Shown: positions 6,678 to 23,610 of the stretch, in pieces | Position numbering within the stretch: position 1 is the stretch's first letter | Layout of the letters: the number at the start of each line of letters is the position of its first letter | The notes under the pieces: model-generated | What the model was told of the DNA's origin: nothing | Seen by the model: only the letters and a program-made list of their open reading frames with translations | The model's database searches: none | Assembly (NCBI GenBank): GCA_964541895.1 | Contig: CAZISM010000001.1 | Coordinates: forward strand, 22,796 to 86,795 | Reading direction: 5' to 3' | Length of the DNA: 64,000 nt | From: an uncultured Cytophagia bacterium | GTDB lineage: Bacteria; Zhuqueibacterota; Zhuqueibacteria; Residuimicrobiales; Residuimicrobiaceae | Made by a program: the position numbers and the translations under genes

Positions 6678-7793
6678 TTGGCTACGATCGAACAACAATG
6701 GCCCCGTCCGCATACACGGGACATGCGTGAAGAGCTCTATCAGACTCTTTTTGAGCATGCAGGCATTGCGGTGGCGGTGGTGCGTCAGGATGGTCTTTTG
6801 TTGACGGTCAATCGTCAGTTTGAACTGCTGAGCGGATTATCGCGTGCAGAGCTGGAAAATCGAAAGTATCTGTTCGATTTTTTCCGTCTGGATGACCGGC
6901 CTGCTCTTGAATCCTGTTTGCGCCGCAAGTGCGACCATACAGAGGGCGGCGGCTGCTATTCGGAAGGGCAGTGGCAGGCGAGCGAGACCGAGAGCCGTCA
7001 TGTACAGCTGAATATGAGCGCCATTCCACGTACCAACGAATCCATCGTGTCGATCACGGATGTGACGGAGCTTCGCCAGCTGCAATTTCAACTGGCACGG
7101 TCCAAGCAGCTGGCCGAGATCGGCGAGCTGTCAGCGGCCATTGCGCACGAAATCCGCAATCCGTTGGGCGCCATCAACACCTCGGTGGAGGTTCTGCGCA
7201 ACAGCCTGCAGCTCTCCGGCGAAGATCACGATCTGATGAACATTATCCAGGAAGAAACGCGCCGCCTGGACCGGATCGTCAAGGATTTTCTACACTTTGC
7301 CAGACTAAACCGGATGAGAATTGCCGCGGTCGATCTGAATCAACTCATTCGGGAAACGTTGTTTTTATACAAAAACACGCTGCAGGGAGGCATCCGGATC
7401 GAAATTGACCTTTATGCCGAGCTGCCGCTGCTCTACGGCGATGAAGATCACCTGCGCCAGGTGATGATCAATCTCCTCGTCAACAGCGTGGAGGCCATGC
7501 CTCATGACGGGTCGCTGACCATTCGTACTACTGTGCTAAAAGTAGAGTCGTTGAAAAGTTTCATCCAGATCCTGATTCAGGATACCGGATTGGGGATAGA
7601 ACAGAAATATCTGCATAAAATTTTCAAGCCTTTCTTTTCAACCAAGGAAAAGGGTGTTGGGATGGGACTCGCCATCTGCGAGCGAATTATTCATAATCAT
7701 GGCGGAACGATTGATGTCACCAGCGACGTCGGCAAAGGGACAACGTTTGTAATAACGTTGCCGGTCAATCACGCCATCCCCGTGGAGGAGTAG
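6678..7793 (+). CDS. Cytoplasmic PAS sensor histidine kinase (NtrB/PilS-like); TTG start at 6678, alternative ATG at 6723
   Basis: H-box ELSAAIAHEIRNPL, N-box LLVNSVEAM, G-boxes DTGLGI and GVGMGLAICERII. No TM segments. Cys-rich PAS segment. Confidence 0.85.
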   Translation: MATIEQQWPRPHTRDMREELYQTLFEHAGIAVAVVRQDGLLLTVNRQFELLSGLSRAELENRKYLFDFFRLDDRPALESCLRRKCDHTEGGGCYSEGQWQASETESRHVQLNMSAIPRTNESIVSITDVTELRQLQFQLARSKQLAEIGELSAAIAHEIRNPLGAINTSVEVLRNSLQLSGEDHDLMNIIQEETRRLDRIVKDFLHFARLNRMRIAAVDLNQLIRETLFLYKNTLQGGIRIEIDLYAELPLLYGDEDHLRQVMINLLVNSVEAMPHDGSLTIRTTVLKVESLKSFIQILIQDTGLGIEQKYLHKIFKPFFSTKEKGVGMGLAICERIIHNHGGTIDVTSDVGKGTTFVITLPVNHAIPVEE

Positions 7794-7800
7794 GAATCCT

Positions 7801-9129
<1,329 letters not shown>

Positions 9130-9175: not shown

Positions 9176-9207
9176 AAAGGGCGACTCACCAGGTCGCCCT
9201 TTTTTTG
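9176..9207 (+). terminator. Rho-independent terminator after the NtrC-like gene (gggcgac/gtcgccc stem plus T7)
   Basis: Read directly in sequence. Confidence 0.6.
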
Positions 9208-9477: not shown

Positions 9478-9867
9478 ATGTTACGTATCCTTATAGTCGA
9501 TGATAATCGCAACTTTCGCACCTCTTTAACCATCGGTTTACGACGAGAAGGTTTTATGGTGGAATCCAGCGGCAACCCGGTCGAAGCGTATTCTTTGATT
9601 CAGGAGAGATTGTTCGACGCTCTGTTAACCGATTTGCGAATGCCTTACATTAGCGGGTTTGAGTTGGCGAAACTGGCCAGGCGTCAGCAGCCCAATATTG
9701 TAGTCGTTCTGCTTTCGGCGTATGATTTCAAGGATATGCTGGCAGAGCCGTCTGTGGAAAGGGATTTCATGAAATTGTCTAAACCGTTCGATATGCAGGA
9801 GCTGCTGGGCCTGCTATCTGCAAGAAAACAGGCAACAAAAAGGGAACATCATTTAATTCACCAGTAA
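9478..9867 (+). CDS. Single-domain CheY-like response regulator; likely start 9478, ORF track gives 9415
   Basis: MLRILIVDD..LTDLRMP..LSAY..KLSKPF receiver motifs. No output domain. GGAAGG RBS before 9478. Confidence 0.75.
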   Translation: MLRILIVDDNRNFRTSLTIGLRREGFMVESSGNPVEAYSLIQERLFDALLTDLRMPYISGFELAKLARRQQPNIVVVLLSAYDFKDMLAEPSVERDFMKLSKPFDMQELLGLLSARKQATKREHHLIHQ

Positions 9868-9899: not shown

Positions 9900-10313
9900 A
9901 TGGGACAGCAACAACTCTTATTAATCGTTCTGAGCGTCATCATCGTCGGAATCGCGGTGGTAGTCGGTATCAACATGTTTGGCGCTTCGGCCGCTTCTGC
10001 CAACCTGGAAGCCGTGTCGAATGATCTGCTGACCTTGGCTTCGGCCGCCCAGCAGTACTATGTAAAACCATCCTCCATGGGTGGTGGTGGCAATTCCTTT
10101 GCCGGCTTGTCTGCTGATGCGGCTGGCGTTGCCAAGCTGACCCCAAAAGCTTCCAACGACAATGGCACGTACAGTGTCAAGACCGCCGGCGACGCTACCA
10201 GTGTGGTTCTTTCAGGAGTTGGCAAGCATGACGGCGATGGTGATGATACCAACTGCACGGTGGACGTTACAGTGTACAACGATCACATTGCCACCACGAT
10301 CGTGAGCCGTTAA
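9900..10313 (+). CDS. Candidate major pilin-like protein (N-terminal hydrophobic helix, non-canonical leader)
   Basis: 137 aa. AGGAG RBS. N-terminus MGQQQLLLIVLSVIIVGIAVVVG followed by a Gly/Ser-rich secreted domain. Position matches pilS-pilR-pilA synteny. Strong terminator follows. Confidence 0.55.
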   Translation: MGQQQLLLIVLSVIIVGIAVVVGINMFGASAASANLEAVSNDLLTLASAAQQYYVKPSSMGGGGNSFAGLSADAAGVAKLTPKASNDNGTYSVKTAGDATSVVLSGVGKHDGDGDDTNCTVDVTVYNDHIATTIVSR

Positions 10314-10510: not shown

Positions 10511-11851
10511 GTGCGCGAATTTCGATATACAGGTCTGAATCTGCAGGAGAAACGGGTTATCGGCTATTTTGAAGCCGAAAACCTGCGGCAGGCCAAAAAA
10601 AGAGCAGAGATCATAAGCCGGCAATACGGCTTTCGCCTTACGGCTGTGCAAGCCAAGGCCGTCTTCCTCTATAAGGTGCAAGGGCGGGGCGGGGAGTGGC
10701 TGCGTGGGGAGCAGGAAGCATATACCCGGGAAGAGGTCGACCTGGCTCTGCGGCGCATGGGATTTGATCAGGTGTACGTGACCAAGCTGGTTCTCAACCT
10801 GAGCGGTAAACCCCCCTATTCTGATATAATAACGTTCATCCGACTCTCCGCCGATTTGTTGAAGGAAAAGCTGCCCTTTGACGAAATTCTGACTCTCCTT
10901 GAATCCGATATGTCCAATCGCGCCATGCGGCGCACGGTCAAGGAAATTCTTGCCGACTTGAAAAACGGCAAAGACGGCGAAGAAGCGTTCAATCGCCAGG
11001 CCAACAGTCTGGGAAAATTTCCCGCGCGTATGCTGGGGGTGGCCTCAAAAAGTGGTAACATGGCGGAGGTGTACGAGAACACAGCCAAGTTTCTTGAGAG
11101 GGATTATGAGTTTCGCAAGAGTCTTCGCAGTGCGCTGTTGCAGCCGTCGATCACCGTTTTGGCCCTGATGGGCGCGGTGGTGTTCTACATCGGCTATATT
11201 TTCCCCAAGACGGCGCAGCTGTTTGAAGACGTCGGCGCCAAGCTGCCGCCCATGACCCGGGCCAGCCTGGACCTCAGCCATTTTGTCCAGAACAACCTGA
11301 TGCTGATCATTATCACGATCCTGGCGCCCCCTGTGCTGTTCTGGCTTTTTATCCGTTCCGAAAAGGGGCAGATTCTGTTTGGTAAATATTTTATCAAAAT
11401 GCCCATCATCGGTTCGCTGTTTCATAAAATTTCCATAGAAATCTTTTGCCGCGTTTTTCATTCCATGTACAGCGGATCCGGTGAAAACATCGAAGTCATC
11501 CGTACGGCCGCCGAAGCCTGCAGAAACCGATACATGGAGAAGCGGATCAAGGAGGTGGCCATTCCGATGATGATGCGGGACGGCCGCGGCTTTGTCGAAT
11601 CGCTTAAATCCACCAACGTGTTTACGGAAAACGCGTTGAACCGTTTGAATGCCGGAGCGGAATCCGGAACATTGAAAAAGGTCACCTATCAGATAGCCAA
11701 TTTTTATGAGCGGGAAACCACCTATCGCATGCGTACGATCGTCGACTGGATTCAGATCCTGATTGCCTTTTTTATCATGATCGTGATGACACTGTTGACG
11801 ATTGTATCCTCGGAGACGGCGGTGGTGCAACCCAAAATGCCGGGAATGTAG
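10511..11851 (+). CDS. pilC: Type IV pilus inner-membrane platform protein PilC (GspF family); GTG start
   Basis: Two T2SSF repeats, three TM helices, PilC-like N-terminus FRYTGLN..G.FEAEN. Confidence 0.85.
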   Translation: MREFRYTGLNLQEKRVIGYFEAENLRQAKKRAEIISRQYGFRLTAVQAKAVFLYKVQGRGGEWLRGEQEAYTREEVDLALRRMGFDQVYVTKLVLNLSGKPPYSDIITFIRLSADLLKEKLPFDEILTLLESDMSNRAMRRTVKEILADLKNGKDGEEAFNRQANSLGKFPARMLGVASKSGNMAEVYENTAKFLERDYEFRKSLRSALLQPSITVLALMGAVVFYIGYIFPKTAQLFEDVGAKLPPMTRASLDLSHFVQNNLMLIIITILAPPVLFWLFIRSEKGQILFGKYFIKMPIIGSLFHKISIEIFCRVFHSMYSGSGENIEVIRTAAEACRNRYMEKRIKEVAIPMMMRDGRGFVESLKSTNVFTENALNRLNAGAESGTLKKVTYQIANFYERETTYRMRTIVDWIQILIAFFIMIVMTLLTIVSSETAVVQPKMPGM

Positions 11852-11853
11852 TC

Positions 11854-13638
11854 ATGCAAACCAAAGCCCCTGTTCCCAATGCGGTCATGGAAAAATTGTC
11901 CGGCAACGGCTTTTTTACCAAAGAGCGTCTGGAACAGGCCTTTAAAACCCTGGCCCAATCCTCCGGGCGACGATCGCTCAGCGACATTCTTATCAACGAC
12001 CTGGGCTATGATCGTCATACGGTGATGCAAAAGCTGTGCGAAGTGTATGCCTTTCGCGAAATCCGTTTGAATCCGGCGGCGCTGTCGGAAGGCTGGGTTA
12101 AATTCATCCAGAAATATTTCAAGTCGCTGGAGGAAAAGAACAAGAAGGCGTTCATCGAGCAAAAGATCATCCCCTTCGGATACAGTGAACGCAATCGGGA
12201 TGTGCTGATCTTCATCACCCCCGATCCCACCGTCCGCCGGGTGGCCGAAATTCTGCACCAGGCCGGCGTGGTCAAGTTTGAGCTGGCCTATGCCAAGCTG
12301 GAAGAGGTCAACGATCTGTTGACCAAGACGATGACCAGCGAAAACGAATACCTCAACAAGCTCAAAGAGGCCAGCAACGAGATCGCGCTGCAAAAGCTGG
12401 ATGAGGATGAGAAGGGGATTGATGAAGACGAGCTCAACGCGGCCATCAATAAAAGCCTGCTAGTCAATTTATTCGAGGCCGCTCTGATCGAGTCGGTCCG
12501 TCGCGGCTCCAGCGATATTCATATTATCCCGCGGGAGCACAACCAGACCGACATCTATTTGCGCGTCGACGGTCGCCTGCAACTGTGGCATCGACAGGAT
12601 TCGGTAAAGCCGGAGGCCTTTCTCGCTGTGGTCAAGGACCGTACCAAAAACGTCGATCGCTTTGAATGGGAGACGGCTCAGGACGGTTTCATACAACGGC
12701 AAATTGACAATTACACCATCCGCTATCGAGTTTCCATTTTACCCATTGTCTCCACCGCGCTGGCCCGCAAGTACGAGAGCGTCGTCATCCGTGTGCTCGA
12801 TGACCGCAAAGTGATTACCGATCTGGAGAAGCTGGGATTCGACGACTATGCCAAAAAGGAATTTGTCAAGGCGATCACCAAGCCGCAGGGCATGGTCATT
12901 CTCACCGGTCCGACCGGATCCGGAAAGAGCACCACCCTGGTGGCCGCTCTCAGCCAGGTCATGACGCCGGAGCTCAATATTCTGACGGTCGAGGATCCGG
13001 TGGAATACAACATTCGCGGCGCGCGGCAGCTCAAGCTGGGTAACAAGATGAACTTTGATCAGGCCATCCGCAGTATTCTTCGCCATGATCCGGATATCGT
13101 GATGGTCGGTGAAATCCGTGACGCCAAGACGGCGGAAATCGCCATCAAACTGGCCAACACCGGCCATCTGACCTTCAGCACCGTGCACACCAACGATGCC
13201 GCCAGTGTGGTTTCACGATTGTACAAGATGGGCATCGAGCCGTTTTTGATCGCCTATGCCATCAACCTGGTGGTGGCGCAGCGTTTGATCCGAATGCTGT
13301 GCAAGCATTGCAAAAAGCCGATCGAAAAGCTGGATCCCTCGATTCCGCTCTCCATGGGATTCAGCGAGGAAGAAGTTGCCCGAGCGCAGTTTTATCAGAC
13401 GGTCGGGTGTCCTAAATGCCGCAACGGCTACGCCGGCCGCAGCGGTATCCATGAAGTGTTGACCTTTACCAATCCGATTCGGCGTCTGATTTTCGAGGCC
13501 AAGGGAGAGGTCAACGAAGAGGCGATCAGAGACGAAGCGGTCCGAAACGGCATGTCCACGCTGCGTGCCGCCGCCCGGCGCCGCGCGCTGTTGGGACAAA
13601 CGACCCTGGAAGAGGTGGCCGCGGTGACCACCGAATAG
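11854..13638 (+). CDS. pilB: Type IV pilus assembly ATPase PilB (GspE family)
   Basis: T2SSE_N-like N-terminal domain. Walker A GPTGSGKST. Asp/His boxes. Tetracysteine CKHC..CPKC motif. Confidence 0.9.
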   Translation: MQTKAPVPNAVMEKLSGNGFFTKERLEQAFKTLAQSSGRRSLSDILINDLGYDRHTVMQKLCEVYAFREIRLNPAALSEGWVKFIQKYFKSLEEKNKKAFIEQKIIPFGYSERNRDVLIFITPDPTVRRVAEILHQAGVVKFELAYAKLEEVNDLLTKTMTSENEYLNKLKEASNEIALQKLDEDEKGIDEDELNAAINKSLLVNLFEAALIESVRRGSSDIHIIPREHNQTDIYLRVDGRLQLWHRQDSVKPEAFLAVVKDRTKNVDRFEWETAQDGFIQRQIDNYTIRYRVSILPIVSTALARKYESVVIRVLDDRKVITDLEKLGFDDYAKKEFVKAITKPQGMVILTGPTGSGKSTTLVAALSQVMTPELNILTVEDPVEYNIRGARQLKLGNKMNFDQAIRSILRHDPDIVMVGEIRDAKTAEIAIKLANTGHLTFSTVHTNDAASVVSRLYKMGIEPFLIAYAINLVVAQRLIRMLCKHCKKPIEKLDPSIPLSMGFSEEEVARAQFYQTVGCPKCRNGYAGRSGIHEVLTFTNPIRRLIFEAKGEVNEEAIRDEAVRNGMSTLRAAARRRALLGQTTLEEVAAVTTE

Positions 13639-13688
13639 TCGCCGGCCAACGCTTTCCTGACGTTAACGAATGACAAAGGATGCGGTTC

Positions 13689-14645
13689 ATGTCTGACATA
13701 CTTGTGGTGGATGATGATCCCGAAATACGGAGCTCGTTTGTGGAGATATTGCAGACGGCGGACATGCAGGTCGACACCGTAGCCGATGCGGATGAGGCGG
13801 CCAACAAAATCAAGGCAAAAAACTATGAGCTTATTCTGGTAGATTTATTGCTGCCGGGAGAGATCAACGGCATGTCTTTGATCGAATCCTTCCGCGCCCT
13901 GGTGGCCCAATCGTATATCATTGCCTATTCCGCCTACAGCGGACGTACTATTGCTGAAAAAGCGTTACGGGCCGGCGCCAACGGCTTTGTCCCCAAAGCC
14001 TATTTGAAAGATCATCTTCTGCAGACCGTTATGAATGTGTTAACCGGCCCCAAGGGCAAGACCATCCTGCCGGGCCCGGCGGCCGCAGCGCCCGAACCGT
14101 CGCCGGCACCGGCTCCTGCACCGGCTCCTGCACCGTTTTTGGAGACCAGGCCGGCCCAGGATGTAGTGCCGCTGCTGTTTCTTAACTTGCCCCGTCAACA
14201 GGTGCAGGAATTGCTGACGCTGGCTGACCAGCGTACGCTGCCGCGCGGCGATTCGTTCCTGGTGCAAAGCCAGCAGAATATCGTCACCATCGGACGCGGC
14301 CAGGCCGATCTGCTTTATCGCAACAGAAAAATAGGACAAATGAACGAAGGCGAAACCATCGGAGAAGCTTCCTTTTTCGACACCAGCAATGACAACCATG
14401 TATTCGCGCTGGTAGCAAAGAATGACTGCGTTTTGTACCTGTTTAATAAAAGCGATCTGAAAAACTATTTTAAGGATCATGGCAGAAATGTAACGCTTCG
14501 ATTCGCAGCCAACATCGTGTGGAGTGTTTCCAACACCATGATGAAATGCGTTAAAGAGCTCTATCGGACGGACGAAGTGCCGGTCAAAAGTGAATCCCTG
14601 TTTGAAAATAGAAAACCATGGTCGGCGGAGGTTCTGGTCAATTGA
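13689..14645 (+). CDS. Response-regulator receiver fused to a cyclic-nucleotide-binding (CAP effector) domain, no HTH; ORF track start 13680
   Basis: REC motifs ILVVDDD and LILVDLLLPG. (AP)n linker. cNMP-binding motif GETIGEASFF. No DNA-binding region at the C-terminus. Confidence 0.8.
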   Translation: MSDILVVDDDPEIRSSFVEILQTADMQVDTVADADEAANKIKAKNYELILVDLLLPGEINGMSLIESFRALVAQSYIIAYSAYSGRTIAEKALRAGANGFVPKAYLKDHLLQTVMNVLTGPKGKTILPGPAAAAPEPSPAPAPAPAPAPFLETRPAQDVVPLLFLNLPRQQVQELLTLADQRTLPRGDSFLVQSQQNIVTIGRGQADLLYRNRKIGQMNEGETIGEASFFDTSNDNHVFALVAKNDCVLYLFNKSDLKNYFKDHGRNVTLRFAANIVWSVSNTMMKCVKELYRTDEVPVKSESLFENRKPWSAEVLVN

Positions 14646-15907
14646 CGGAGAACAGCCAACATAAGGACAATGGCCTGTACCGGTTCGCGCCGGAGGGGGT
14701 GGAGCTGTTCGAACGGCTCATCCGTCGGGTACCGCCCGATCTCGAAGGCTACGATCGCCAGGAGCAGCTTGCCCGGTTGATGGCTGAATGCACCCACGAA
14801 CAACGGCGGCTTTTGCGCGCGGTTGTTGATGGCTTTCTGCTGCATATGCGTCGGTTGGAAGCTTCGGATATTGAAATCGGCGGCGCCCATGCCGGCAGTT
14901 CCATATGGCTCCGCATCCAGGGCCGTAAAATGGCACGGCCGGAAATGGGCAAATGGAGCCTGCCGCAATCCGATGTGCTCATCCATGCGCTGTTGACCGC
15001 CAAACAGAGCGAGCGGCTGCTGAGAAATCGAGCCGTCGATTTTTCCTATGCCATGGAAAAAGAGGGTGCCACGCTTCGCTGGCGCGCCTGCGCCTATTTT
15101 GACCTGGGTGTTCTGGCGCTTAACATGCGCACCATCTCTCACAAGGTGTTTCCGTATCAGAAATTGAATATACCGGATCCTATTACCAAGAGCCTTTCCC
15201 TGGCCCATGAAAAACAGGGATTGATCCTGTTGACCGGCATCACCGGATCCGGAAAAAGCACCACCATGGACAGCATCATCGACGCCAACAATCAAACGGT
15301 CGATGGCCATATTGTTATCGTCGGGGACCCCATTGAGTATATTCATGAATCCAATCGATGTATCATTCGCCACCGGGAGGTGGGGCGCGATGTGCCTTCC
15401 TTCAAGGACGGAGCGGTGCAGGCGCTTCGCCAGGATCCGGATATCATCGTCATCGGCGAAATGCGCGATCCGGAAACCATCATGACCTGTCTGGAGATCG
15501 TCGATACCGGCCACAAAGTGTTTTCCACGCTGCATACCGGTTCTGCCGTGGAAACCATCGACCGCATTGTGGCAGAATGCCCCGGCAATGAACAGGATCG
15601 TGTGCGGAATCGGCTGGCGGACGTGTTACGGGTGATTATCTCCCAAAAGCTGATTCCAGGCACCGAAGGCAAACTGGTGCTGGCTAAAGAAATTTTATTG
15701 GTATCGTCGCCGGTTCGCGCCGCCATTCGCAACCGCAATACACACGAAATCTATCAAATGATAAGCGAATCCGGAAAATGGGGCATGATGACCCTGGAAC
15801 AGGATCTGCTGCGGTTGTGGAAAATGCGTCTCATCACCGAAGGCGATGCCTTTGACTACGCCAACAATAAACGTCGCATGCAGGAATTGATGTATCAGAG
15901 GGTGTGA
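14618..15907 (+). CDS. pilT: PilT-like type IV pilus retraction ATPase with about 55-aa N-terminal extension; alternative start 14780
   Basis: Walker A LLTGITGSGKST. GEMRD Asp box. His box HTGSAVETIDR. ASDIEI corresponds to the PilT N-terminal ASDLHL. Overlaps the upstream gene by 28 nt if started at 14618. Confidence 0.85.
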   Translation: MVGGGSGQLTENSQHKDNGLYRFAPEGVELFERLIRRVPPDLEGYDRQEQLARLMAECTHEQRRLLRAVVDGFLLHMRRLEASDIEIGGAHAGSSIWLRIQGRKMARPEMGKWSLPQSDVLIHALLTAKQSERLLRNRAVDFSYAMEKEGATLRWRACAYFDLGVLALNMRTISHKVFPYQKLNIPDPITKSLSLAHEKQGLILLTGITGSGKSTTMDSIIDANNQTVDGHIVIVGDPIEYIHESNRCIIRHREVGRDVPSFKDGAVQALRQDPDIIVIGEMRDPETIMTCLEIVDTGHKVFSTLHTGSAVETIDRIVAECPGNEQDRVRNRLADVLRVIISQKLIPGTEGKLVLAKEILLVSSPVRAAIRNRNTHEIYQMISESGKWGMMTLEQDLLRLWKMRLITEGDAFDYANNKRRMQELMYQRV

Positions 15908-15913
15908 TCAGTT

Positions 15914-17470
15914 ATGAAAAAGTATGCCCTGGGCATATATATAGACGGCACGGTGTTGCACGCGGCTCTGTTGAGCAAGCAGACCGGCCGTCCCTATATC
16001 GAAAATCTGGAACGGTTTCAGCTGTTCGGTCCGCTCGAGCAGCGGGAAATCATCGAGCAGCACAAGCGGGCCGTGGCGGGCAATGAGACGGTGCTGAAAA
16101 AGGATGATCCATTCGGCCTGGATGCCCTCTTCAAGCGGACCGATTCCATCATCAGCGATACGGAATCCAAAAACAACATCGACGTCATCTTTAAGATACT
16201 GACCACGTTCTGCCCGCGGGGCACACAGATCGCCTTCAATCTGTCCGAAGTCTTTACGTTCTACAAGCATCTGCCGCCGATCAAGGAGGCGTCGGGGCTC
16301 AAGCACAAAAAAGCCGTATGGCAGGCGTTCACGGGTGAAATGCACTCGGAGCCGAAGAATGAGAACGTCGGCTCTTTTTCGCTGCCGGATCAATCGGTTT
16401 TTGCCCTGCTCCACAACGACCCGCTGGTGTTTTCATCGCTGCTGATGGATGCCATCAGCATGCTGCATTCGACACCGCCCAAGATAAAGTTGGTGGATTC
16501 GGTGGAATTCGTGCTCGCGCACGAAATCATGCATACCTTTCAGTTGACCGATCAGGATCATACGGCCGTTATCCTGTTCTCCAACAACTGCACGCGCATC
16601 TTTTTTATGCGTGGCCATCTGATTCATACGGTGTTACCGACGATTTATGAAGGCTCCGAATCCGAGACGGTCTGCGATACGGCGTTCGCCAAAATATTGT
16701 TCGAATTCGACACCGGCAAACTGGTGGCCTTGAACCGTATCATCCTCGCCGGGGATGCAAGCCGGATGAGGGCGGAAACCTATTTTCGTGACAAATGGCC
16801 GGCGGCAACCGTCACTCGCCTAGAAATGGTCCGTCCGGTTCTCAATGAAAAACTGGAAGCCATGGAGGGGCGAATCTCGGCGTTCTCCGTCCCCATCGCC
16901 CTGGGCCTGAAAACGCTGGATGAGCATCCGAAAGCGCCTTATGATCATAATTTTTTACCGTCTCGCATCAAGGAAAAGCAATCGGTGTATCGAATCGCCT
17001 GGCACGGCGTGCTGCTGCTCTCGATTCTGTTTCTGTTTGTCATCTTTATGACCTACCAGTCGGTCCGCAGCAGCCAGAATCTGAGCCGGGCCCGAAGTGA
17101 AGGCAAATTGCTCTCTGTGCAGTTGATGGATCTGCAGAATGTGGCCAATGAAGTCGACAGCCTGCGCGCGAAAATCAGTATCCTCGAAAAGGGCACGGCG
17201 TTGATCGATTCCCTTAACAAGAACACCATGCGATGGACGCCGGTTCTGCGTTCTTTTTCAGAAGCCTTTGATAAGGCAGGGCCGTTTTCGATCGTCAAGG
17301 CGGAAACCAATAACAGCAGGCAAATGATCGTTACCCTCGAAGTCAATCGGGAAGAGCAGGTCGCCGCCCTGGAAAGAGTGCTGCGGCCCTTCACCGTCAC
17401 CAGCGTGCTGCGCAACCAGGAAGCGGACGATCGCTGGATGCAGGTCGAATTTACGTGCATGATAAACTGA
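15914..17470 (+). CDS. PilM-PilN-like fusion: actin-like cytoplasmic domain, one TM helix, periplasmic coiled-coil domain
   Basis: N-terminus YALGIYIDGTVLHAALLS is PilM-like. TM helix near residue 355. Coiled-coil and PilN-like periplasmic domain follow. Confidence 0.6.
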   Translation: MKKYALGIYIDGTVLHAALLSKQTGRPYIENLERFQLFGPLEQREIIEQHKRAVAGNETVLKKDDPFGLDALFKRTDSIISDTESKNNIDVIFKILTTFCPRGTQIAFNLSEVFTFYKHLPPIKEASGLKHKKAVWQAFTGEMHSEPKNENVGSFSLPDQSVFALLHNDPLVFSSLLMDAISMLHSTPPKIKLVDSVEFVLAHEIMHTFQLTDQDHTAVILFSNNCTRIFFMRGHLIHTVLPTIYEGSESETVCDTAFAKILFEFDTGKLVALNRIILAGDASRMRAETYFRDKWPAATVTRLEMVRPVLNEKLEAMEGRISAFSVPIALGLKTLDEHPKAPYDHNFLPSRIKEKQSVYRIAWHGVLLLSILFLFVIFMTYQSVRSSQNLSRARSEGKLLSVQLMDLQNVANEVDSLRAKISILEKGTALIDSLNKNTMRWTPVLRSFSEAFDKAGPFSIVKAETNNSRQMIVTLEVNREEQVAALERVLRPFTVTSVLRNQEADDRWMQVEFTCMIN

Positions 17471-17471
17471 T

Positions 17472-18434
17472 GTGGTCCCTATGTCCTACGCTGTACGAAA
17501 TACGTTGATTATCGCCACAATTTGGGCTGCCATTTTATTTTGCGGCATTTATTATATCTACGGCGTGCAGCAAAAGCGCGAACGGATTCAGCTGGTCGAT
17601 AACATGGGTAAGCGAAAACGGCTGGATGATCTGCAGCGGCTCAAGCAGGACCGTACGGTGCTGCAAAACGAAAAAGCACGGCTTTTGGAGCTGAGTTCGG
17701 GCCGAATGGGCGTTCTGGCCTCACAGGAGTCGCCGGGCGAAACCTACGATTATCTGTTGCGGGAGATGCGCAGGAATCGCTTCGACCTGCAGTTCAGTCT
17801 GGAAATGAACCGTGAAGATTCGTACATGGGAGTGCTGCGGCGGACCTATACGCTTAATGGAGCAGGCGCTTTTACCGATCTGTATTACCTGATGTCCTAT
17901 CTGGAGAGCGGCCCTCTCTTTTATGATATCCACTCCGTAAAGCTCGAACGGGCCAATCGCACCGCGCAGGAGAAGCGGGCCCACCGCAAAGGCCATGTCC
18001 AGTTCACGCTGACCCTGGCCGGCTTTAACCGCCACGAAGGCCCGAACATCGCTTCCGTGGAACGGACCGGAACCTTGCCGGAGCGCATCGCTGAAATGGT
18101 CACCAATAGGGAAGTAAAGACCGTCTTGCCGGACGCCGCGCCGGCGGCTCCGGAGGTGACGGCGCCCGCCAAAATGGCCCAGGAAACAAAGCCGGCGCCA
18201 CGCATCAACAGCGATGGGCTGCCGGAGGTGGATGAAGCGTGCTCACTGCTGGCGGTGACAGCCCAAAGTGTGCTTGTACGCGATCGCCGCGGATCTACCG
18301 TTCGATTGCGGGCCGGGGACCGGGTTTGGCAGGGACGGGTGGCGGAGATACATCCGGCGGACAAACGCGTCGTATTTGAAATTAATCAGAACGGAAATGC
18401 CGAACGCTTTTCGCTTACAACGACCATTAAATGA
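17472..18434 (+). CDS. PilO-PilP-like fusion: N-terminal TM + coiled coil + PilO-like domain, Ala/Pro linker, PilP-like beta domain
   Basis: TM NTLIIATIWAAILFCGIYYIYG. C-terminal VLVRDRRGSTVRLRAGDRVWQGRVAEI resembles PilP. Confidence 0.55.
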   Translation: MVPMSYAVRNTLIIATIWAAILFCGIYYIYGVQQKRERIQLVDNMGKRKRLDDLQRLKQDRTVLQNEKARLLELSSGRMGVLASQESPGETYDYLLREMRRNRFDLQFSLEMNREDSYMGVLRRTYTLNGAGAFTDLYYLMSYLESGPLFYDIHSVKLERANRTAQEKRAHRKGHVQFTLTLAGFNRHEGPNIASVERTGTLPERIAEMVTNREVKTVLPDAAPAAPEVTAPAKMAQETKPAPRINSDGLPEVDEACSLLAVTAQSVLVRDRRGSTVRLRAGDRVWQGRVAEIHPADKRVVFEINQNGNAERFSLTTTIK

Positions 18435-20168
18435 GTGACGATCATGTGGAAAAACATCGTTCAAGCCATTGCCATACCCGTCATCATGTCGGCGCAATGG
18501 CTTTTTGGCCAAAATGAATTGCCCAGGGAGTACGTTCCGGCTGAGGAGATGATCAGCCTGAACAGCAACCTGGATTTCATTTCAGCGCTGGATCTCATCA
18601 GCGAGTATTCGGTTCGTTTTACCGGAAAACCGCTATTTGATCCCACCCGGCAGGAGGGAGCGATCGGCATAGAGATCTCGACCATGCCCTGGGAAAAGGC
18701 GCTGCAAGCCATTTTGAGCCGGCGGGGACTCTGGTATAACGAGCGCGATCACTTTTTTCAAATCGTAACGCCGGTCGAAAAGAACCAAAAAGAGGAAAAT
18801 ACCGTCCCGGACGACATCAAGTTCAAGCTTGGCCATCGCGAAGTAAAAATTGAAACTATATTTTTTGAAGGCGATCGAAAGGCCCTGTCGGAAATCGGCA
18901 TCGACTGGACCAGCTTTTACGACGGCAAGGTGGATCTGACCGCCAGTCAAATGACCGCCCTGAACGTGTCCGAAGATATGTTTACTACCTCCGTCAAAAT
19001 ACCCAAATCGCTGTTCAGCGTGGACATTAAAGTGTTACTCAAGGTGCTGGATTCACAAAATATCGGACGGGTGATTGCACAACCGCAAGTGACGGTAACA
19101 GAGGCCAATGAAGGCAAGATTCAGGTAGGTCAGGATTTTTCCATAAAGACCAGGGACTTTGCCGGCAACTTGATCGACCGGTTTTTCAGCACCGGCACCA
19201 TCCTTCAGGTCACGCCGTACCTCTATTTTGATGAAAGGCGTGTGCCGGTGATTTTTATCAAGGCGCATGTAGAGCGCAGCCAGGCGTTTCCAGACGTCGT
19301 CAGCACCATCATCAAAAAGTCAGAGGCCAATTCCTACGTGCAGCTGTTCGATGCGGAAGAAACCATGATCGCCGGACTGTATTCCACGGAAAACAATCAC
19401 CTGCGCAAAGGCGTTCCGATTCTCAAGGATCTGCCCTGGTGGCTGCTGGGCCTCCGTTACGTGTTCGGCTTTGAGCGACAGGAAGAAGTGCAGAAAGAAT
19501 TGATTATTATCCTCAAAGCCAGCCTGCTGCCGGAGGTGTACTCCCGACTCGACCAGTACAAATCCTCGGCCAAACCGAAAACCATGGAAGACAAGCTGAA
19601 TCGATTCCGACAGCCTTTTCTGAGACCAGGAGCCGGGCTTCCCCAAAGCACACCGCCGCCAGAGTCCAAAACGCTCATGAACGATCAGACCGCTCAGGAC
19701 CCGAGCGTTGCACCGACCCCGGAGGCTGTGGAAAAATTTTCCAGCCTCCAGGACCAGGGACCGGTTCAGGCCGACATGGTTAGCGACACCCAGGAGGCGC
19801 CTTCGAAAAAACTGCGACCGGTAACGGAGAGCGAGGGAAGCAAATCAATTTCGGCACCCTATTTCCCCGATTTTACGCCGGTGACAAAAACGGAAAAGAT
19901 CGCGCCCCCGGAGCCGGCCGGCGATGTCTACAGAGGCGTTATCAGTAAAGTGGTCAATGATATGGTCGTCATCGAGTGGCATCGCGGAGCGGATCCTGCA
20001 GCCCTGCCGCTGCAGGATTTAACCGTATTCCGCCGAATGGCGGACAGCAAGCAGTACCGGGCCGTTGGCAAGGTGGCCATGGTTCGGACCATGGAGGCAA
20101 AAACCGTCGCCCGATGCAGGCCGGGCTCTGTTATCCTGCCAGGCGATCAGGTGGTCGTTAAATTATAA
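18435..20168 (+). CDS. pilQ: Secretin (PilQ/GspD family), compact, with Pro/Ser/Thr-rich linker and extra ~80-aa C-terminal domain
   Basis: Secretin motifs RVIAQPQVTVTEANEGKIQVGQ and KGVPILKDLPWWLLGLRYVFGF. About 110-aa low-complexity linker, then a beta-rich C-terminal domain. Confidence 0.8.
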   Translation: MTIMWKNIVQAIAIPVIMSAQWLFGQNELPREYVPAEEMISLNSNLDFISALDLISEYSVRFTGKPLFDPTRQEGAIGIEISTMPWEKALQAILSRRGLWYNERDHFFQIVTPVEKNQKEENTVPDDIKFKLGHREVKIETIFFEGDRKALSEIGIDWTSFYDGKVDLTASQMTALNVSEDMFTTSVKIPKSLFSVDIKVLLKVLDSQNIGRVIAQPQVTVTEANEGKIQVGQDFSIKTRDFAGNLIDRFFSTGTILQVTPYLYFDERRVPVIFIKAHVERSQAFPDVVSTIIKKSEANSYVQLFDAEETMIAGLYSTENNHLRKGVPILKDLPWWLLGLRYVFGFERQEEVQKELIIILKASLLPEVYSRLDQYKSSAKPKTMEDKLNRFRQPFLRPGAGLPQSTPPPESKTLMNDQTAQDPSVAPTPEAVEKFSSLQDQGPVQADMVSDTQEAPSKKLRPVTESEGSKSISAPYFPDFTPVTKTEKIAPPEPAGDVYRGVISKVVNDMVVIEWHRGADPAALPLQDLTVFRRMADSKQYRAVGKVAMVRTMEAKTVARCRPGSVILPGDQVVVKL

Positions 20169-20244
20169 CTATCGTGTCCTTGTGGCATGCGACGAGGCCG
20201 CACATCATATTGTGTGGTAACACGTTAAACCGGGAATGGTCATC

Positions 20245-23200
20245 ATGAACAGAAAAATTCTGCCGGCTATTCTGCTTACCCTGGTTGGGTTGTGGAGTTG
20301 TGGTGGTGAGAAAGAACAGATTACCAGCAGTTATGCCGTGGATGATTTCCAGGCCGCTCAGATCCGTATTTTGGCGGACGGGCTCGCATCCACTACGCTT
20401 ACCGTTCTGGTCATGGATAGTGTTAACATGCCGGCTGCCAATATTCGGGTCTTTTTCAATACCAGCGCCGGCACCATAACCAAACAGAGCGTCACTTCAG
20501 AGTACGGCAAAGCGACCGCCACGCTGACGGGTGTGGCCAGCGAACTGGATATCACAGCGGTTGTTACAGCCACGGTAATTGACAGCTCCGCCCTGAAGAA
20601 AAGCATTCCTTCTCTATACCGGCTTTCTTTCGCCGGCGAGCCCGGAGAGGCGATACCGTCGTTAAAAAAGGCCGGAGCCGAACCTGGTCCCAGCGCAACT
20701 GTCGAAGTAACGTTTGCAGGCATTTCGTTTTCTTCCGAGCTGGAGAAATCCGTTTTGCCGGCCGATGGAATCAGCCAGGGCCAGGTGCAGATCATCTTGC
20801 GGGAAACCGTTACGGGCAAAAATATCGCCGGCGCGAAATTATCCCTAAGGGCTCGCAAGATTCACATCGTCGGTGAAACCATCACCTCGGAACGTGGTCA
20901 GGCGGAAGTGGCCTTTACGGCCGTCAGTCAGGCCGGCGACGACACGCTGTACATCGACTATGGAGCTTTTAAAAGCAGAGTGCATGTGCTCAAGTTTATG
21001 GCCACCAGACTCAATCTGACACCCGTTCACAGCAAGTTGAAATCGGACGGCAAAAGCCGCACCTCGCTGACGGCTCAATTGGTCAATCATGCCAATAATC
21101 CCGTGGTCGGGGCGACGATTCGCTTTACCTGTGATCAGGGCGTCATATCGGGAACCGCGGTTACCAACAGCCAGGGTGAAGCCATAGCCGAGCTGACCAG
21201 TGCAGCCGCCAACCGTAACGACGTTAAAGTTGTTGCCGATTTTAACGGCGTGCTGGATACGGCATGGGTGGATTATGTAAGCTCCACGGCGGCATGGTTG
21301 GAGCTCTCTTCGGAGGCGGCTGTCCTGCGAGACGGTCAGACCAAATTGACGATGAAAGCGGTGCTGACCGACGATTATCAGCTGCCGGTCGCAGATGCCT
21401 TGATCCGGTTTTCCACTTCTATCGGCAGCGTGGACAGCGTGGTAAAAACCAACAACGCCGGTGAAGCGATGATCCGATATATGCCGGATGCCGGCGAGAG
21501 TGACGTTGTAGCCGCCATCACCGCCAGTCACGATCTGCTGCGCAAAACCAGAACGGTCAAGCTGACCGGCATCAGTTTCAGCTCTGATTCTGCACCGGAT
21601 TCTATCCTGGCGGACGCCAGATCGCAATCCACGATTTCGGTGCAACTGAAAACGACCACCACCCATACGGCGCTGACGGGCGTACCGGTCTATTTTTCAG
21701 CCAGCAAGGGCCGTATCGATAACATGGTGACAACCGACCAGTACGGGATAGCCAGGGCAACGCTGACCTCCAACACGACACCCGGCTCCAGTTCCATCCT
21801 CATCACTGCCGCCGGCTTGAGTAAAACCGTAAACGTTTTTTTCCTCGGTTCTGTCGCCCAGAAAATGACCATACAGCCGCTGGGCAGCCAAAAGCCGGCT
21901 CGCGATGGCATAACTTTGCAGTCCTTCCAGATTCGTCTGCTGGACAATTTGAATAATCCGCTGGCGGATCGCAAAATTGTACTCTCCTCGCTGTACGGTC
22001 GCATCGACAGTCTGGCGACCACCGGCTCCGATGGCACGGCCGTCGTGCAGTATCGGCCTGACGCCAACAGTGCTGATGTGACGGAAACCATCACCGCCCG
22101 CTGCGGGGATCTGGCTACCAACCTGTCGTTCAAGCTGTATGGCATCTCTTTGGCGCTCTCGGTCAGTCCCGACTCACTGCCGGCAGACGGCAAATCCACG
22201 GCAGCCGTCACAGCCCAGTTGAAATACACCTCGGCCAATACGGTGATCCAGGGTGCCACCGTATCGTTCAGCTCTTCTCTGGGCAGCATTCCAACAGCCA
22301 GCGTCAGCGACGGGCTGGGAGTGGCGACCACAAAATTCACGGCGCCGATTACCGCCGGCCTGGCCACTATAACGGGCACGTATGGCGGATTGTCCAAAAG
22401 TGTTTCTGTTAAATTGGTGGCGGACACGCCGTCCACCATTCTGTTGTCGGCGGCACCTGAATTCATCTGGGTGACAGAAACCGGCAACCTGGATTTGACT
22501 TCCATCACGGCAACGGTGCTGTCCACCACCGGCGAAATCATCGGCAACGAGACCGGTCTTCGTTTCGCCATTCGCAACGGTCCCAACGGCGGTGAACAGA
22601 TCACTCCGTCCAGTGGCGCTTCCAGCCGCGAGACCTCGGTACTGCGCACGGTGCAGGGCCGGGCGCGAGCGACGCTGAAATCCGGCATCCGCTCCGGTAC
22701 GGTTGAAATCCAGGCGTATCTCGCCGAGCGGCCTGAAGTCATTTCAAGGAAATCACTGATTGTGATCCGGTCCGGACCGCCCTATATCTATGTCAATCCG
22801 GCCAACAAGAACGATTTCACCACACACATGACGCTGGCGACCGATTATCTGAATCTGTACGGCTGGAATTTTGTCAATACCTTCAACATCAGCGTGTACG
22901 TCGGCGATAAATACAACAATCCGGTCGAAGAGGGCACCACCGTCTATCTGACCACAACGGCGGGCATCGTCACCACAGATGTGAAAACCAATGCGGTAGG
23001 GAAAGGTACCGCGATTCTGATGACAACCAATCCGCGGGCCTACGTCAACCCCAAAGACGGCACAGCCCTGTCACCGCTGCGGATCCCGAATCCGAACGAT
23101 GCCGGATTGATGTTGCCGAACGCTCTGCCTACCTTTGAGGGCTGGCGGGTCAAAGATCTTTTCGATCATACCGGCGAAGGGGATGGCTGCCTGACTCTGC

Positions 23201-23610
23201 TGGCCTATACTCATGGCAAGGACCAGAAATCGCAGGATGCGGTCGTGTTTTCGACTCACAACCTCATCACCAGCGCCGGCATGTATGTCATGGAGGTGAC
23301 GTCTTCGAAATCGGAGTTGCGTCTGGGCGAGTCCACGGTGATCAATATTCTTCTCTACGACATCAATGGCAAACCGCCTTCGGCCGGATCTTCGCTGACC
23401 GTGAGCGCCACGGCAGGCAAGATTTCGGAGGCCAATCTCATGCCCTCGGGCGATCAATACGGTTATGGCGCCACCCGCTACAGTACCACGCTGGTGAACA
23501 CGCTCGATCCGTTGCAGGATAAAGCCACTATATCTGATGTCAATGTCCGTTTGAACAGCCCCAACGGCATGATGAGCCGAACGATCGGCATCCAGCTCTA
23601 CATCAATTAG
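20245..23610 (+). CDS. Large Ig-like (Big_1) repeat lipoprotein of about 1120 aa (invasin/intimin-type repeats); ORF track start 20236
   Basis: Lipobox LVGLWSC. At least eight ~100-aa repeats with Big_1 signatures (TLTAQL..VVGATIRF, AAVTAQLKYT, ISVQLKTT). Confidence 0.8.
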   Translation: MNRKILPAILLTLVGLWSCGGEKEQITSSYAVDDFQAAQIRILADGLASTTLTVLVMDSVNMPAANIRVFFNTSAGTITKQSVTSEYGKATATLTGVASELDITAVVTATVIDSSALKKSIPSLYRLSFAGEPGEAIPSLKKAGAEPGPSATVEVTFAGISFSSELEKSVLPADGISQGQVQIILRETVTGKNIAGAKLSLRARKIHIVGETITSERGQAEVAFTAVSQAGDDTLYIDYGAFKSRVHVLKFMATRLNLTPVHSKLKSDGKSRTSLTAQLVNHANNPVVGATIRFTCDQGVISGTAVTNSQGEAIAELTSAAANRNDVKVVADFNGVLDTAWVDYVSSTAAWLELSSEAAVLRDGQTKLTMKAVLTDDYQLPVADALIRFSTSIGSVDSVVKTNNAGEAMIRYMPDAGESDVVAAITASHDLLRKTRTVKLTGISFSSDSAPDSILADARSQSTISVQLKTTTTHTALTGVPVYFSASKGRIDNMVTTDQYGIARATLTSNTTPGSSSILITAAGLSKTVNVFFLGSVAQKMTIQPLGSQKPARDGITLQSFQIRLLDNLNNPLADRKIVLSSLYGRIDSLATTGSDGTAVVQYRPDANSADVTETITARCGDLATNLSFKLYGISLALSVSPDSLPADGKSTAAVTAQLKYTSANTVIQGATVSFSSSLGSIPTASVSDGLGVATTKFTAPITAGLATITGTYGGLSKSVSVKLVADTPSTILLSAAPEFIWVTETGNLDLTSITATVLSTTGEIIGNETGLRFAIRNGPNGGEQITPSSGASSRETSVLRTVQGRARATLKSGIRSGTVEIQAYLAERPEVISRKSLIVIRSGPPYIYVNPANKNDFTTHMTLATDYLNLYGWNFVNTFNISVYVGDKYNNPVEEGTTVYLTTTAGIVTTDVKTNAVGKGTAILMTTNPRAYVNPKDGTALSPLRIPNPNDAGLMLPNALPTFEGWRVKDLFDHTGEGDGCLTLLAYTHGKDQKSQDAVVFSTHNLITSAGMYVMEVTSSKSELRLGESTVINILLYDINGKPPSAGSSLTVSATAGKISEANLMPSGDQYGYGATRYSTTLVNTLDPLQDKATISDVNVRLNSPNGMMSRTIGIQLYIN

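Follow-up and report, generated by a model that had tools for sequence, protein, structure and literature searches.

A response regulator with a receiver and a degenerate cyclic-nucleotide-binding-like domain, located between the pilB and pilT genes of an uncultured lineage of bacteria

The window analyzed here is the whole 64,000-nucleotide stretch of contig CAZISM010000001.1 from an uncultured Cytophagia bacterium. Within a type IV pilus gene cluster, between the genes for a PilB-type extension ATPase and a PilT-family retraction ATPase, it carries a gene for a response regulator in which a receiver (REC) is joined through a linker to a domain resembling cyclic-nucleotide-binding (CNB) domains. 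The gene occupies 13689..14645 on the + strand and encodes 318 amino acids, as delimited from the open reading frame (ORF) list, the ribosome-binding-site context, the N-termini of homologues and Pfam. The enclosing ORF has 321 codons (13680-14645, +) and offers an alternative upstream ATG at 13680; the second ATG, at 13689, is the likely start, because an AAGGA Shine-Dalgarno-like motif lies 8-9 nt 5' of it and every homologue begins with MSDIL or MSYIL. An identical protein is present in an NCBI record (P0001) and is also encoded by a Logan record (L003). From the N to the C terminus the regulator is comprised of a canonical receiver, a Pro/Ala linker that is disordered, a domain of CNB fold that has a long C-helix, and a tail of 22 residues. 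AlphaFold, run with the family alignment, gave predicted local distance difference test (pLDDT) values above 90 for residues 1-118 (the receiver) and 160-296 (the C-terminal domain). Pfam detected no helix-turn-helix (HTH) or other DNA-binding family, and in the AlphaFold model the protein ends with 22 predicted-disordered residues past the C-helix, leaving no room for a winged HTH. The original prediction, which described a CheY-type receiver fused through an (AP)n linker to a CAP-type domain without an HTH, is borne out by Pfam, by profile comparison with the PDB and by AlphaFold, and the placement between the PilB and PilT genes by T2SSE, TIGR02538 and TIGR01420 matches. Its proposal that the output is not transcriptional agrees with the absence of a DNA-binding domain. 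A CRP-type transcription factor was considered as the identity of the regulator and rejected for want of an HTH, and a gene-calling artefact was likewise rejected, as the ORF with intact domains is conserved in about 20 diverged clusters.

The receiver (residues 4-118, 13698..14042, +) was delimited by the Response_reg match, the (beta-alpha)5 pattern of the AlphaFold model and a census of active-site residues. The predicted fold alternates strand and helix five times with pLDDT above 90, and the domain begins at residue 4 in both Pfam and AlphaFold, with no domain such as PATAN N-terminal to it. The active site of the window protein consists of the acidic pocket Asp-8/Asp-9, the phospho-acceptor Asp-52, Ser-81, Phe-100 and Lys-103. 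Across 23 family members the phospho-acceptor Asp-52 is invariant (23/23), the acidic pocket is kept in most (Asp-8 in 20/23, Asp-9 in 18/23), and the switch residues are nearly constant, with Ser/Thr at position 81 in 22/23, Phe/Tyr at position 100 in 21/23 and Lys-103 in 22/23. Because the phospho-acceptor site is complete, the receiver should be able to serve as a phosphorylation switch, and a phosphorylation input to the regulator is well supported by residue conservation.

The CNB-homology domain (residues 157-296, 14157..14576, +) is predicted to contain the elements of a CNB fold, namely helix alpha-A, an 8-stranded beta-barrel with a short cassette helix, alpha-B and a 30-residue alpha-C. 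Comparison of a 21-sequence family profile with the PDB matched CNB domains of yeast PKA-R (4.6e-7), the bacterial structures 3h3z and 3fx3 (1.6e-5), Plasmodium PKG (2e-23, the sum of four domains), the cyclic nucleotide-binding homology domain (CNBHD) of KCNH (1e-3) and CRP (0.01). The best Foldseek matches of the C-terminal domain are CRP/FNR-family regulators, and among the nearest structures are Clp (3iwz), which responds to c-di-GMP, HcpR, which senses haem, and the CNB domains of PycTIR, which bind cUMP/cCMP. Assignment of the CNB fold is thereby secure, and the long C-helix is CRP-like. Of the two Pfam families named in the original prediction, Response_reg (PF00072) is confirmed with 80.7 bits against a cutoff of 30.2 over residues 4-114; the cyclic nucleotide monophosphate (cNMP) family cNMP_binding (PF00027) is not, as the window protein scores 26.0 bits (E 9e-6, residues 186-263) against a gathering cutoff of 27.5. 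Three close relatives score 21.2-23.5 bits, all below this cutoff.

In CNB domains that bind cNMPs, an Arg and a Ser/Thr of the phosphate-binding cassette hold the cyclic phosphate, and the cassette Gly-Glu pair contacts the ribose 2'-OH. The equivalent segment of the regulator, IGEASFFDTSNDNHVFALVA (residues 224-243, 14358..14417, +), is degenerate by column census and hhalign. In the hhalign comparison of the family with E. coli CRP (UniProt P0ACJ8), Gly-71 and Glu-72 of CRP correspond to Gly-225 and Glu-226 and are kept, whereas Arg-82 corresponds to Asn-236 and Ser-83 to Val-238, with His-237 as a one-residue insertion relative to CRP. Among 21 family C-domains the cassette Gly is present in 21/21 and the Glu in 17/21; Arg occurs in at most 2/21 in any column, the conserved Ser/Thr is absent, and compared with CRP or PKA the cassette has 1-2 additional residues. 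Three further paralogs outside the 21 aligned C-domains are degenerate in the same way, and a tandem paralog in contig L091 scores 33.6 bits with cNMP_binding, above threshold, yet has no Arg at the canonical position. Canonical cNMP binding is absent from CNB folds that lack the cassette Arg (KCNH CNBHDs, CooA and the degenerate CNB-C of Plasmodium PKG are examples), and such folds have other uses. Because the cassette has lost the Arg and Ser/Thr for the cyclic phosphate, the C-terminal domain is best regarded as a CNB-homology domain rather than a sensor of cyclic AMP (cAMP) or cyclic GMP (cGMP), and canonical binding of either nucleotide is probably not to be expected. The dual input put forward in the original prediction is therefore upheld for phosphorylation, with the active site kept across the 23 members, and not for cAMP/cGMP, which fails on the cassette alignment that the prediction had itself named as the test, the conserved phosphate-binding residues being missing.

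The linker (residues 119-156, 14043..14156, +), delimited by pLDDT, a column census and Tandem Repeats Finder (TRF), is disordered and Pro/Ala-rich, includes an (AP)5 stretch and has pLDDT below 50 over residues 121-156. The (AP)n segment covers residues ~128-149 and is coded partly by a 12-nt tandem repeat of 2.5 copies at 14106-14135 (TRF); linker length is variable among relatives. The C-terminal tail (residues 297-318, 14577..14642, +), with the pattern ESLFENxxPWSAEVLxN, also has pLDDT below 50 and is conserved in close relatives. In four close relatives, invariant columns make up 82 % of the receiver, 11 % of the linker, 56 % of the CNB-like domain and 68 % of the tail, such that the predicted-disordered tail outscores the folded CNB-like domain in conservation. 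The sequence suggests that the tail is a short linear docking motif. Although the tail is conserved, AlphaFold neither orders nor docks it, and no self-liganding is predicted. Distant family members recurrently end in acidic-hydrophobic C-termini (..D/E-[IL]-[IL]-x-[LI]) or in a ..x-x-N C-terminus.

Relatives were recovered by an exhaustive HMMER search with the C-domain profile over 1.84 billion cluster representatives, which returned 36 proteins at E<=1e-3, ~20 of them 280-360 aa long with the domain at the same position. The alignment shows a uniform layout of receiver, variable low-complexity linker and C-domain, and the family comprises ~20 diverged clusters with this shared architecture at 21-84 % identity. 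A word-indexed whole-protein search of a 5.8-billion-protein index found only four full-length relatives, as receiver words dominate, and a word-indexed search with the C-domain family profile found only four proteins. A scan of genome contigs with receiver-derived patterns returned 80 unrelated response regulators and no family member, and a scan of metagenome contigs with alignment A2 returned no relative.

Genomic context was read for twelve family clusters, and in 10 of the 12, down to 21 % identity, the regulator gene lies directly downstream of pilB in the same operon. The gene follows pilB directly in the window (100 %), in L001/L002 (P0002, 83 %), in L084 (P0004, 68 %), in a JGI contig on which only a partial upstream gene was read (P0003, 68 %), in L085 (P0050, 35 %), in L086 (P0051, 30 %), in L087/L088 (P0077, 21 %) and in L091/L092 (P0057, 30 %); in L090 (P0066, 24 %) the C-terminus of PilB is encoded upstream, and in L094 (P0059, 28 %) the order PilB-regulator-PilT was confirmed by Pfam. 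Where both flanks were read, PilT is encoded directly 3' of the regulator or after one or two inserted signalling genes. On long contigs the recurring order is pilin, PilC, PilB, regulator, PilT, a protein of ~520 aa, a protein of ~320 aa and secretin, and a giant Big_1 protein follows the secretin in four of five long contigs (L001, L085, L086 and L087), with a DUF4900 gene in its place in L091. In L086 and L091 the one or two signalling genes between the regulator and PilT encode a PilS-like protein with six transmembrane segments and HisKA, without detectable HATPase_c, and in L091 a second, tandem REC-CNB paralog is encoded there as well (L086 5499-6470; L091 10063-11019 and 9030-9986). 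This arrangement suggests that the inserted PilS-like protein is a dedicated membrane partner, acting as phosphatase or in phosphotransfer, that is lacking in the window. Membership of the operon, between the two motor genes, is obligate in most lineages sampled, and pilus association of the regulator is strongly supported by gene order; the conservation beside pilus ATPases that the original prediction had looked for in relatives is thus found.

At the 3' end the regulator gene overlaps pilT whichever start is taken, by 4 nt from TTG 14642 or by 28 nt from ATG 14618, the latter being the overlap given in the original prediction. Junction regions were compared between the window (14618-14700), L001 (10900-10990), L084 (1632-1722) and L085 (8885-8975). 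The ATG at 14618 arises incidentally from the Pro-Trp codons (CC-ATG-G) in the regulator tail and is absent in L084 and L085, whereas the TTG at 14642 is conserved in the context aaTTGAc in 4/4 loci; the PilT protein alignment begins at this conserved TTG codon, which gene callers also chose in the relatives. The true overlap is most likely 4 nt (TTGA), and the 429-aa PilT annotation is probably too long by 8 codons, so that the earlier claim stands as to the overlap and not as to its length. The 4-nt overlap suggests translational coupling, through which the regulator and PilT would be made together. No terminator- or promoter-like signal above background was detected between pilB, the regulator gene and pilT.

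The regulator is part of a + strand cluster that runs in the order PAS histidine kinase, sigma54-type regulator, receiver, pilin-like protein, PilC, PilB, regulator, PilT, 518-aa protein, 320-aa protein, PilQ and a 1124-aa Big_1/Invasin_D3 protein. The PAS-HisKA-HATPase_c histidine kinase (6678-7793, +) and the sigma54-dependent REC-AAA-HTH_8 regulator (7801-9129, +), both assigned by Pfam, form a PilS/PilR-like pair and are candidate phosphodonors; the pair is also kept upstream in L001 and L085. The stand-alone CheY-like receiver (9478..9867, +, Response_reg 69 bits) probably starts at Met-22 of a 150-aa ORF, given that its relatives are 129-132 aa long in the gene calls of L001 and L085. 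The 137-aa pilin-like protein (9900..10313, +) was assigned by operon position and alignment. Its hydrophobic N-terminus, MGQQQLLLIVLSVIIVGIAVVVGI, is nearly unchanged over six diverged loci, with a single Ile-to-Leu change in L087, and has neither the canonical prepilin G/FTLIE motif nor Glu-5. The protein matches no Pfam or NCBIfam family at curated cutoffs, with one sub-threshold MacB_PCD match in Pfam and zero in NCBIfam, and it may belong to an unusual class of type IV pilins with an unusual processing site.

Downstream of the pilin-like gene lie PilC (10511..11851, +), the platform protein, with 102.9 bits for T2SSF and PilC/GspF NCBIfam matches, and PilB (11854..13638, +), the extension ATPase, with 340 bits for T2SSE and a 50-nt gap to the regulator gene. 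The best NCBIfam match of PilB is TIGR02538 PilB, with 418.8 bits, below the equivalog cutoff. PilT (14642..15907, +), the retraction ATPase, has 421 aa from the TTG and 429 aa from ATG 14618, and scores 320.2 bits with TIGR01420 against a cutoff of 319.1, the match beginning at residue 74 of the 429-aa ORF. In every PilT of this operon type the canonical LEASDIEIGG start is preceded by an N-terminal extension of ~60 aa (IFERxxxxxPxDLEGLDRQ..., window 14642-14830); that this extension is a docking surface for the regulator is speculation. The 518-aa (15914-17470, +) and 320-aa (17472-18434, +) proteins occupy the position of PilM/N/O/P and are conserved in every related operon. Neither has a Pfam, NCBIfam or PDB sequence match, and the label of PilMN fusion that the 518-aa protein had been given is not confirmed. 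They are followed by the PilQ secretin (18435-20168, +, Secretin 72.8 bits) and, after it, by the ~1100-aa (1124 aa) protein with repeated Big_1/Invasin_D3 domains (20236-23610, +), which may be an adhesin associated with the pilus or else a surface protein that is exported or displayed together with the pilus machine. No CheA, CheW or MCP gene was found among the scanned window proteins, a subset of the ORFs.

Scans of the window for sigma70 promoters and terminators gave counts not above the shuffled background, matches to the sigma54 promoter consensus were at chance level over the window with none near the pilin gene, and an Rfam scan gave no match. The sole standout is a strong terminator-like hairpin at 9176-9202, with an 11-bp stem and a T-tract, directly 3' of the sigma54-regulator gene. 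This hairpin suggests that the kinase/regulator pair is transcribed separately from the pilus structural genes. At a distance of 34 kb from the pilus cluster the window also carries a gene for a class III adenylate/guanylate cyclase with a fused CHASE2 sensor (48770-50881, -, Guanylate_cyc 85.9 bits), indicating that the organism has cNMP signalling.

All sampled family members come from metagenome-assembled genomes (MAGs). The nearest named relatives of the Der GTPase encoded in the window belong to candidate division KSB1 (59-63 % identity) and to "Calditrichaeota" MAGs (64-65 %), and the Der proteins on the contigs of P0050, P0077 and P0063 are 73 %, 64 % and 64 % identical to the window Der. 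By this single marker the family appears, as far as sampled, to be confined to a KSB1/Calditrichota-related lineage of the FCB group.

The reading that we favour, and to which we give about even credence, is that this non-DNA-binding response regulator is a lineage-specific accessory part of the type IV pilus, switched by phosphorylation and acting via protein contacts. The phosphate would likely come from the PAS histidine kinase whose gene opens the cluster or, in some relatives, perhaps from the PilS-like membrane protein encoded beside the regulator gene. The output would be provided by the CNB-fold domain, with its CRP-like long C-helix, degenerate cassette and no HTH. Phosphorylation is proposed to alter dimerization or the exposure of the CNB-like domain and conserved tail, which would then bind a component of the pilus motor and bias extension versus retraction. 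Candidate targets are PilB, PilT with its lineage-specific N-terminal extension, and PilC, and the mode of action may resemble that of PatA-type regulators or DrdR, direct binders of PilB/PilC or PilB/PilT. Direct action on PilB/PilT is plausible in view of gene position and by analogy with these precedents.

Several observations weigh against this reading. The gene position ties the regulator to pilus function and not to a specific contacted component, so any binding partner named here is putative. AlphaFold gave no confident inter-domain arrangement (predicted template modelling score 0.45), which leaves the switching mechanism conjectural. The regulator is 21-35 % identical where PilT is 62-74 % and Der 64-73 % identical, showing that it evolves much faster. 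A protein that tightly contacts a conserved surface would not be expected to change so fast, although contact with the PilT N-terminal extension, which is variable, would account for this. The cassette Gly-Glu pair and conserved polar residues of the C-helix (Asn-275, Ser-279 and Ser-281) could point to a ligand pocket that still functions. Finally, P0063 (L089) and P0068 (L093) are encoded away from pilus clusters, and the domain pair is thus not in itself pilus-specific; they belong to a paralogous subfamily in which tandem REC-CNB-like pairs are followed by an Exo_endo_phos gene (L089 6974-9891; L093 3512-6532), and these tandem pairs indicate that the same genomes employ the REC-CNB pair in at least one further context. 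In a bolder form, which is possible though distinctly doubtful, the protein would be a previously unrecognized core regulator of a KSB1-type pilus, a phospho-controlled adaptor whose CNB-homology domain and tail dock on PilT and/or PilB. Docking would determine which of the two ATPases is engaged with the platform, and a non-canonical ligand might gate the adaptor. If this is true, a cyclic-nucleotide module would have been repurposed as a motor-exchange switch, with the 60-aa N-terminal extension of PilT as an example of a dock.

Three other explanations have to be weighed, two of which keep a ligand for the C-terminal domain. A true dual-input switch, in which receiver phosphorylation and cAMP/cGMP binding are combined into a joint signal to PilB/PilT, would draw on the CNB fold of the domain, its invariant cassette Gly and frequent Glu (17/21), the cyclase encoded in the window and the tandem paralog of L091 that passes the cNMP_binding threshold with 33.6 bits. 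The residues that would grip the cyclic phosphate are nevertheless absent, with Arg-82 and the adjacent Ser-83 of CRP replaced by Asn-236 and Val-238 and Arg in no more than 2/21 sequences at any column. The cassette is also too long by 1-2 residues, the window protein and three relatives reach only 21-26 bits against 27.5, and even the paralog of L091 has no canonical Arg, which together make this explanation improbable. The CNB-like domain could instead sense some other small molecule, a nucleotide second messenger or a metabolite, and integrate it with phosphorylation for pilus control. CRP/CNB folds are known to have been adapted to other ligands, as the neighbours Clp (3iwz), HcpR and PycTIR illustrate, and the family-wide conservation of the cassette Gly-Glu and of polar C-helix residues (a near-invariant Asn-275 and an S-x-S motif) would fit a pocket. 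Candidate ligand residues such as His or Cys are, however, not conserved across the family, the sequence of the cassette loop is highly variable, which is unexpected for a shared specific ligand, and the tool-based analyses point to no ligand; we consider such a sensor unlikely.

Alternatively, the regulator may make no motor contact and act as a phosphate sink, connector or kinase partner in a PilS/PilR-like circuit that tunes sigma54-dependent pilin expression. Such a role is suggested by the histidine kinase, sigma54-type regulator and third, stand-alone receiver with which the cluster opens, by the PilS-like proteins with six transmembrane segments and HisKA but no ATPase domain encoded directly after the regulator gene in L086 and L091, and by the tandem duplicates and the paralog pairs outside pilus clusters, which fit a general signalling module. 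It sits poorly with the gene being consistently between pilB and pilT and overlapping pilT, not beside the kinase/regulator pair, and with L087/L088, where the order pilB-regulator-pilT is kept with no kinase or sigma54 regulator in the 8 kb of upstream flank read. A pure sink, moreover, needs no conserved 140-aa output domain and tail motif, and we regard this explanation as quite unlikely.

Known controls of pilus extension and retraction involve lineage-specific adaptors that bind PilB or PilT, among them PilZ/FimX, PatA-type regulators and DrdR. The PatA-type (PATAN-REC) regulators of cyanobacterial phototaxis, such as PixE/PixG (bioRxiv 10.1101/2021.06.11.447907; PMC11181946), resemble the window regulator in being two-domain, non-DNA-binding proteins with the non-REC domain as output, and the PATAN domain of PixE binds PilB1 and PilC (bioRxiv 10.1101/2021.06.11.447907), the type IV pilus motor contacts of this class being PilB1 and the PilC N-terminus. 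They differ in that their PATAN output is N-terminal, they are driven by a chemotaxis-like CheA and they are not encoded between pilB and pilT, whereas the window protein has a C-terminal CNB fold and its motor contact is putative. DrdR of Xanthomonas campestris binds PilB and PilT and raises their ATPase activity (PMC13507683). It too is a response regulator without a DNA-binding output, and its binding of PilB/PilT is the mode proposed here for the window regulator; DrdR is, however, a REC-REC protein (pseudo-receiver and receiver) encoded by an orphan gene outside the pilus operon and has no CNB-like domain. PilG and PilH of the Pil-Chp system have antagonistic effects on polar pilus activity (PMC8325320) and likewise represent receiver-based, post-translational control of the balance between type IV pilus extension and retraction, but as single-domain receivers under a CheA-type kinase.

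On the side of the C-terminal domain, CRP/FNR-family proteins (E. coli CRP, P. aeruginosa Vfr and Xanthomonas Clp) share the fold of the ligand domain, with a beta-barrel and a long dimerizing C-helix, whereas the window regulator has no C-terminal winged HTH, no equivalents of Arg-82 and Ser-83, and an N-terminal receiver. Vfr and SyCRP1 connect cAMP to pilus gene expression. The CNBHDs of KCNH/EAG/hERG channels and the CNB-C of Plasmodium PKG, which are among the sequence and structure matches, likewise combine a CNB fold with a cassette that is degenerate, lengthened and devoid of the phosphate-binding Arg. KCNH CNBHDs and PKG CNB-C serve as protein-interaction or regulatory modules without binding cNMPs. 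These modules belong to eukaryotic channels and kinases, and in KCNH the pocket is filled by an intrinsic-ligand strand after the C-helix, whereas the tail of the window protein is predicted to be disordered.

No description of a REC-CNB regulator in a pilus cluster was found in the literature searched, in agreement with the original prediction, which knew of no characterized pilus regulator with this architecture. REC-cNMP_binding architectures are listed in domain databases and are not known to have been characterized. Both domains, and the concept of a response regulator acting on pilus motors, are well known; new are the family of ~20 clusters, the cassette that is degenerate across the sampled members, the fixed position between pilB and pilT and the restriction to an uncultured lineage. 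How bacteria choose between pilus extension and retraction is a standing question, to which the family would bring one more answer, from an uncultured lineage that has hardly been studied, and it would also provide a clear bacterial case of a CNB fold reused for something other than cNMP sensing. Practical importance is limited, as no cultured host is known and function is read from context only. The analysis also corrects an easy mis-annotation, in that database names such as "cNMP-binding" or "DNA-binding NarL/FixJ response regulator" invite the wrong assignment. One such name is already in use: P0089, in the P0050 cluster, is called "DNA-binding NarL/FixJ family response regulator" at JGI, although the family has no DNA-binding domain, and this name could propagate.

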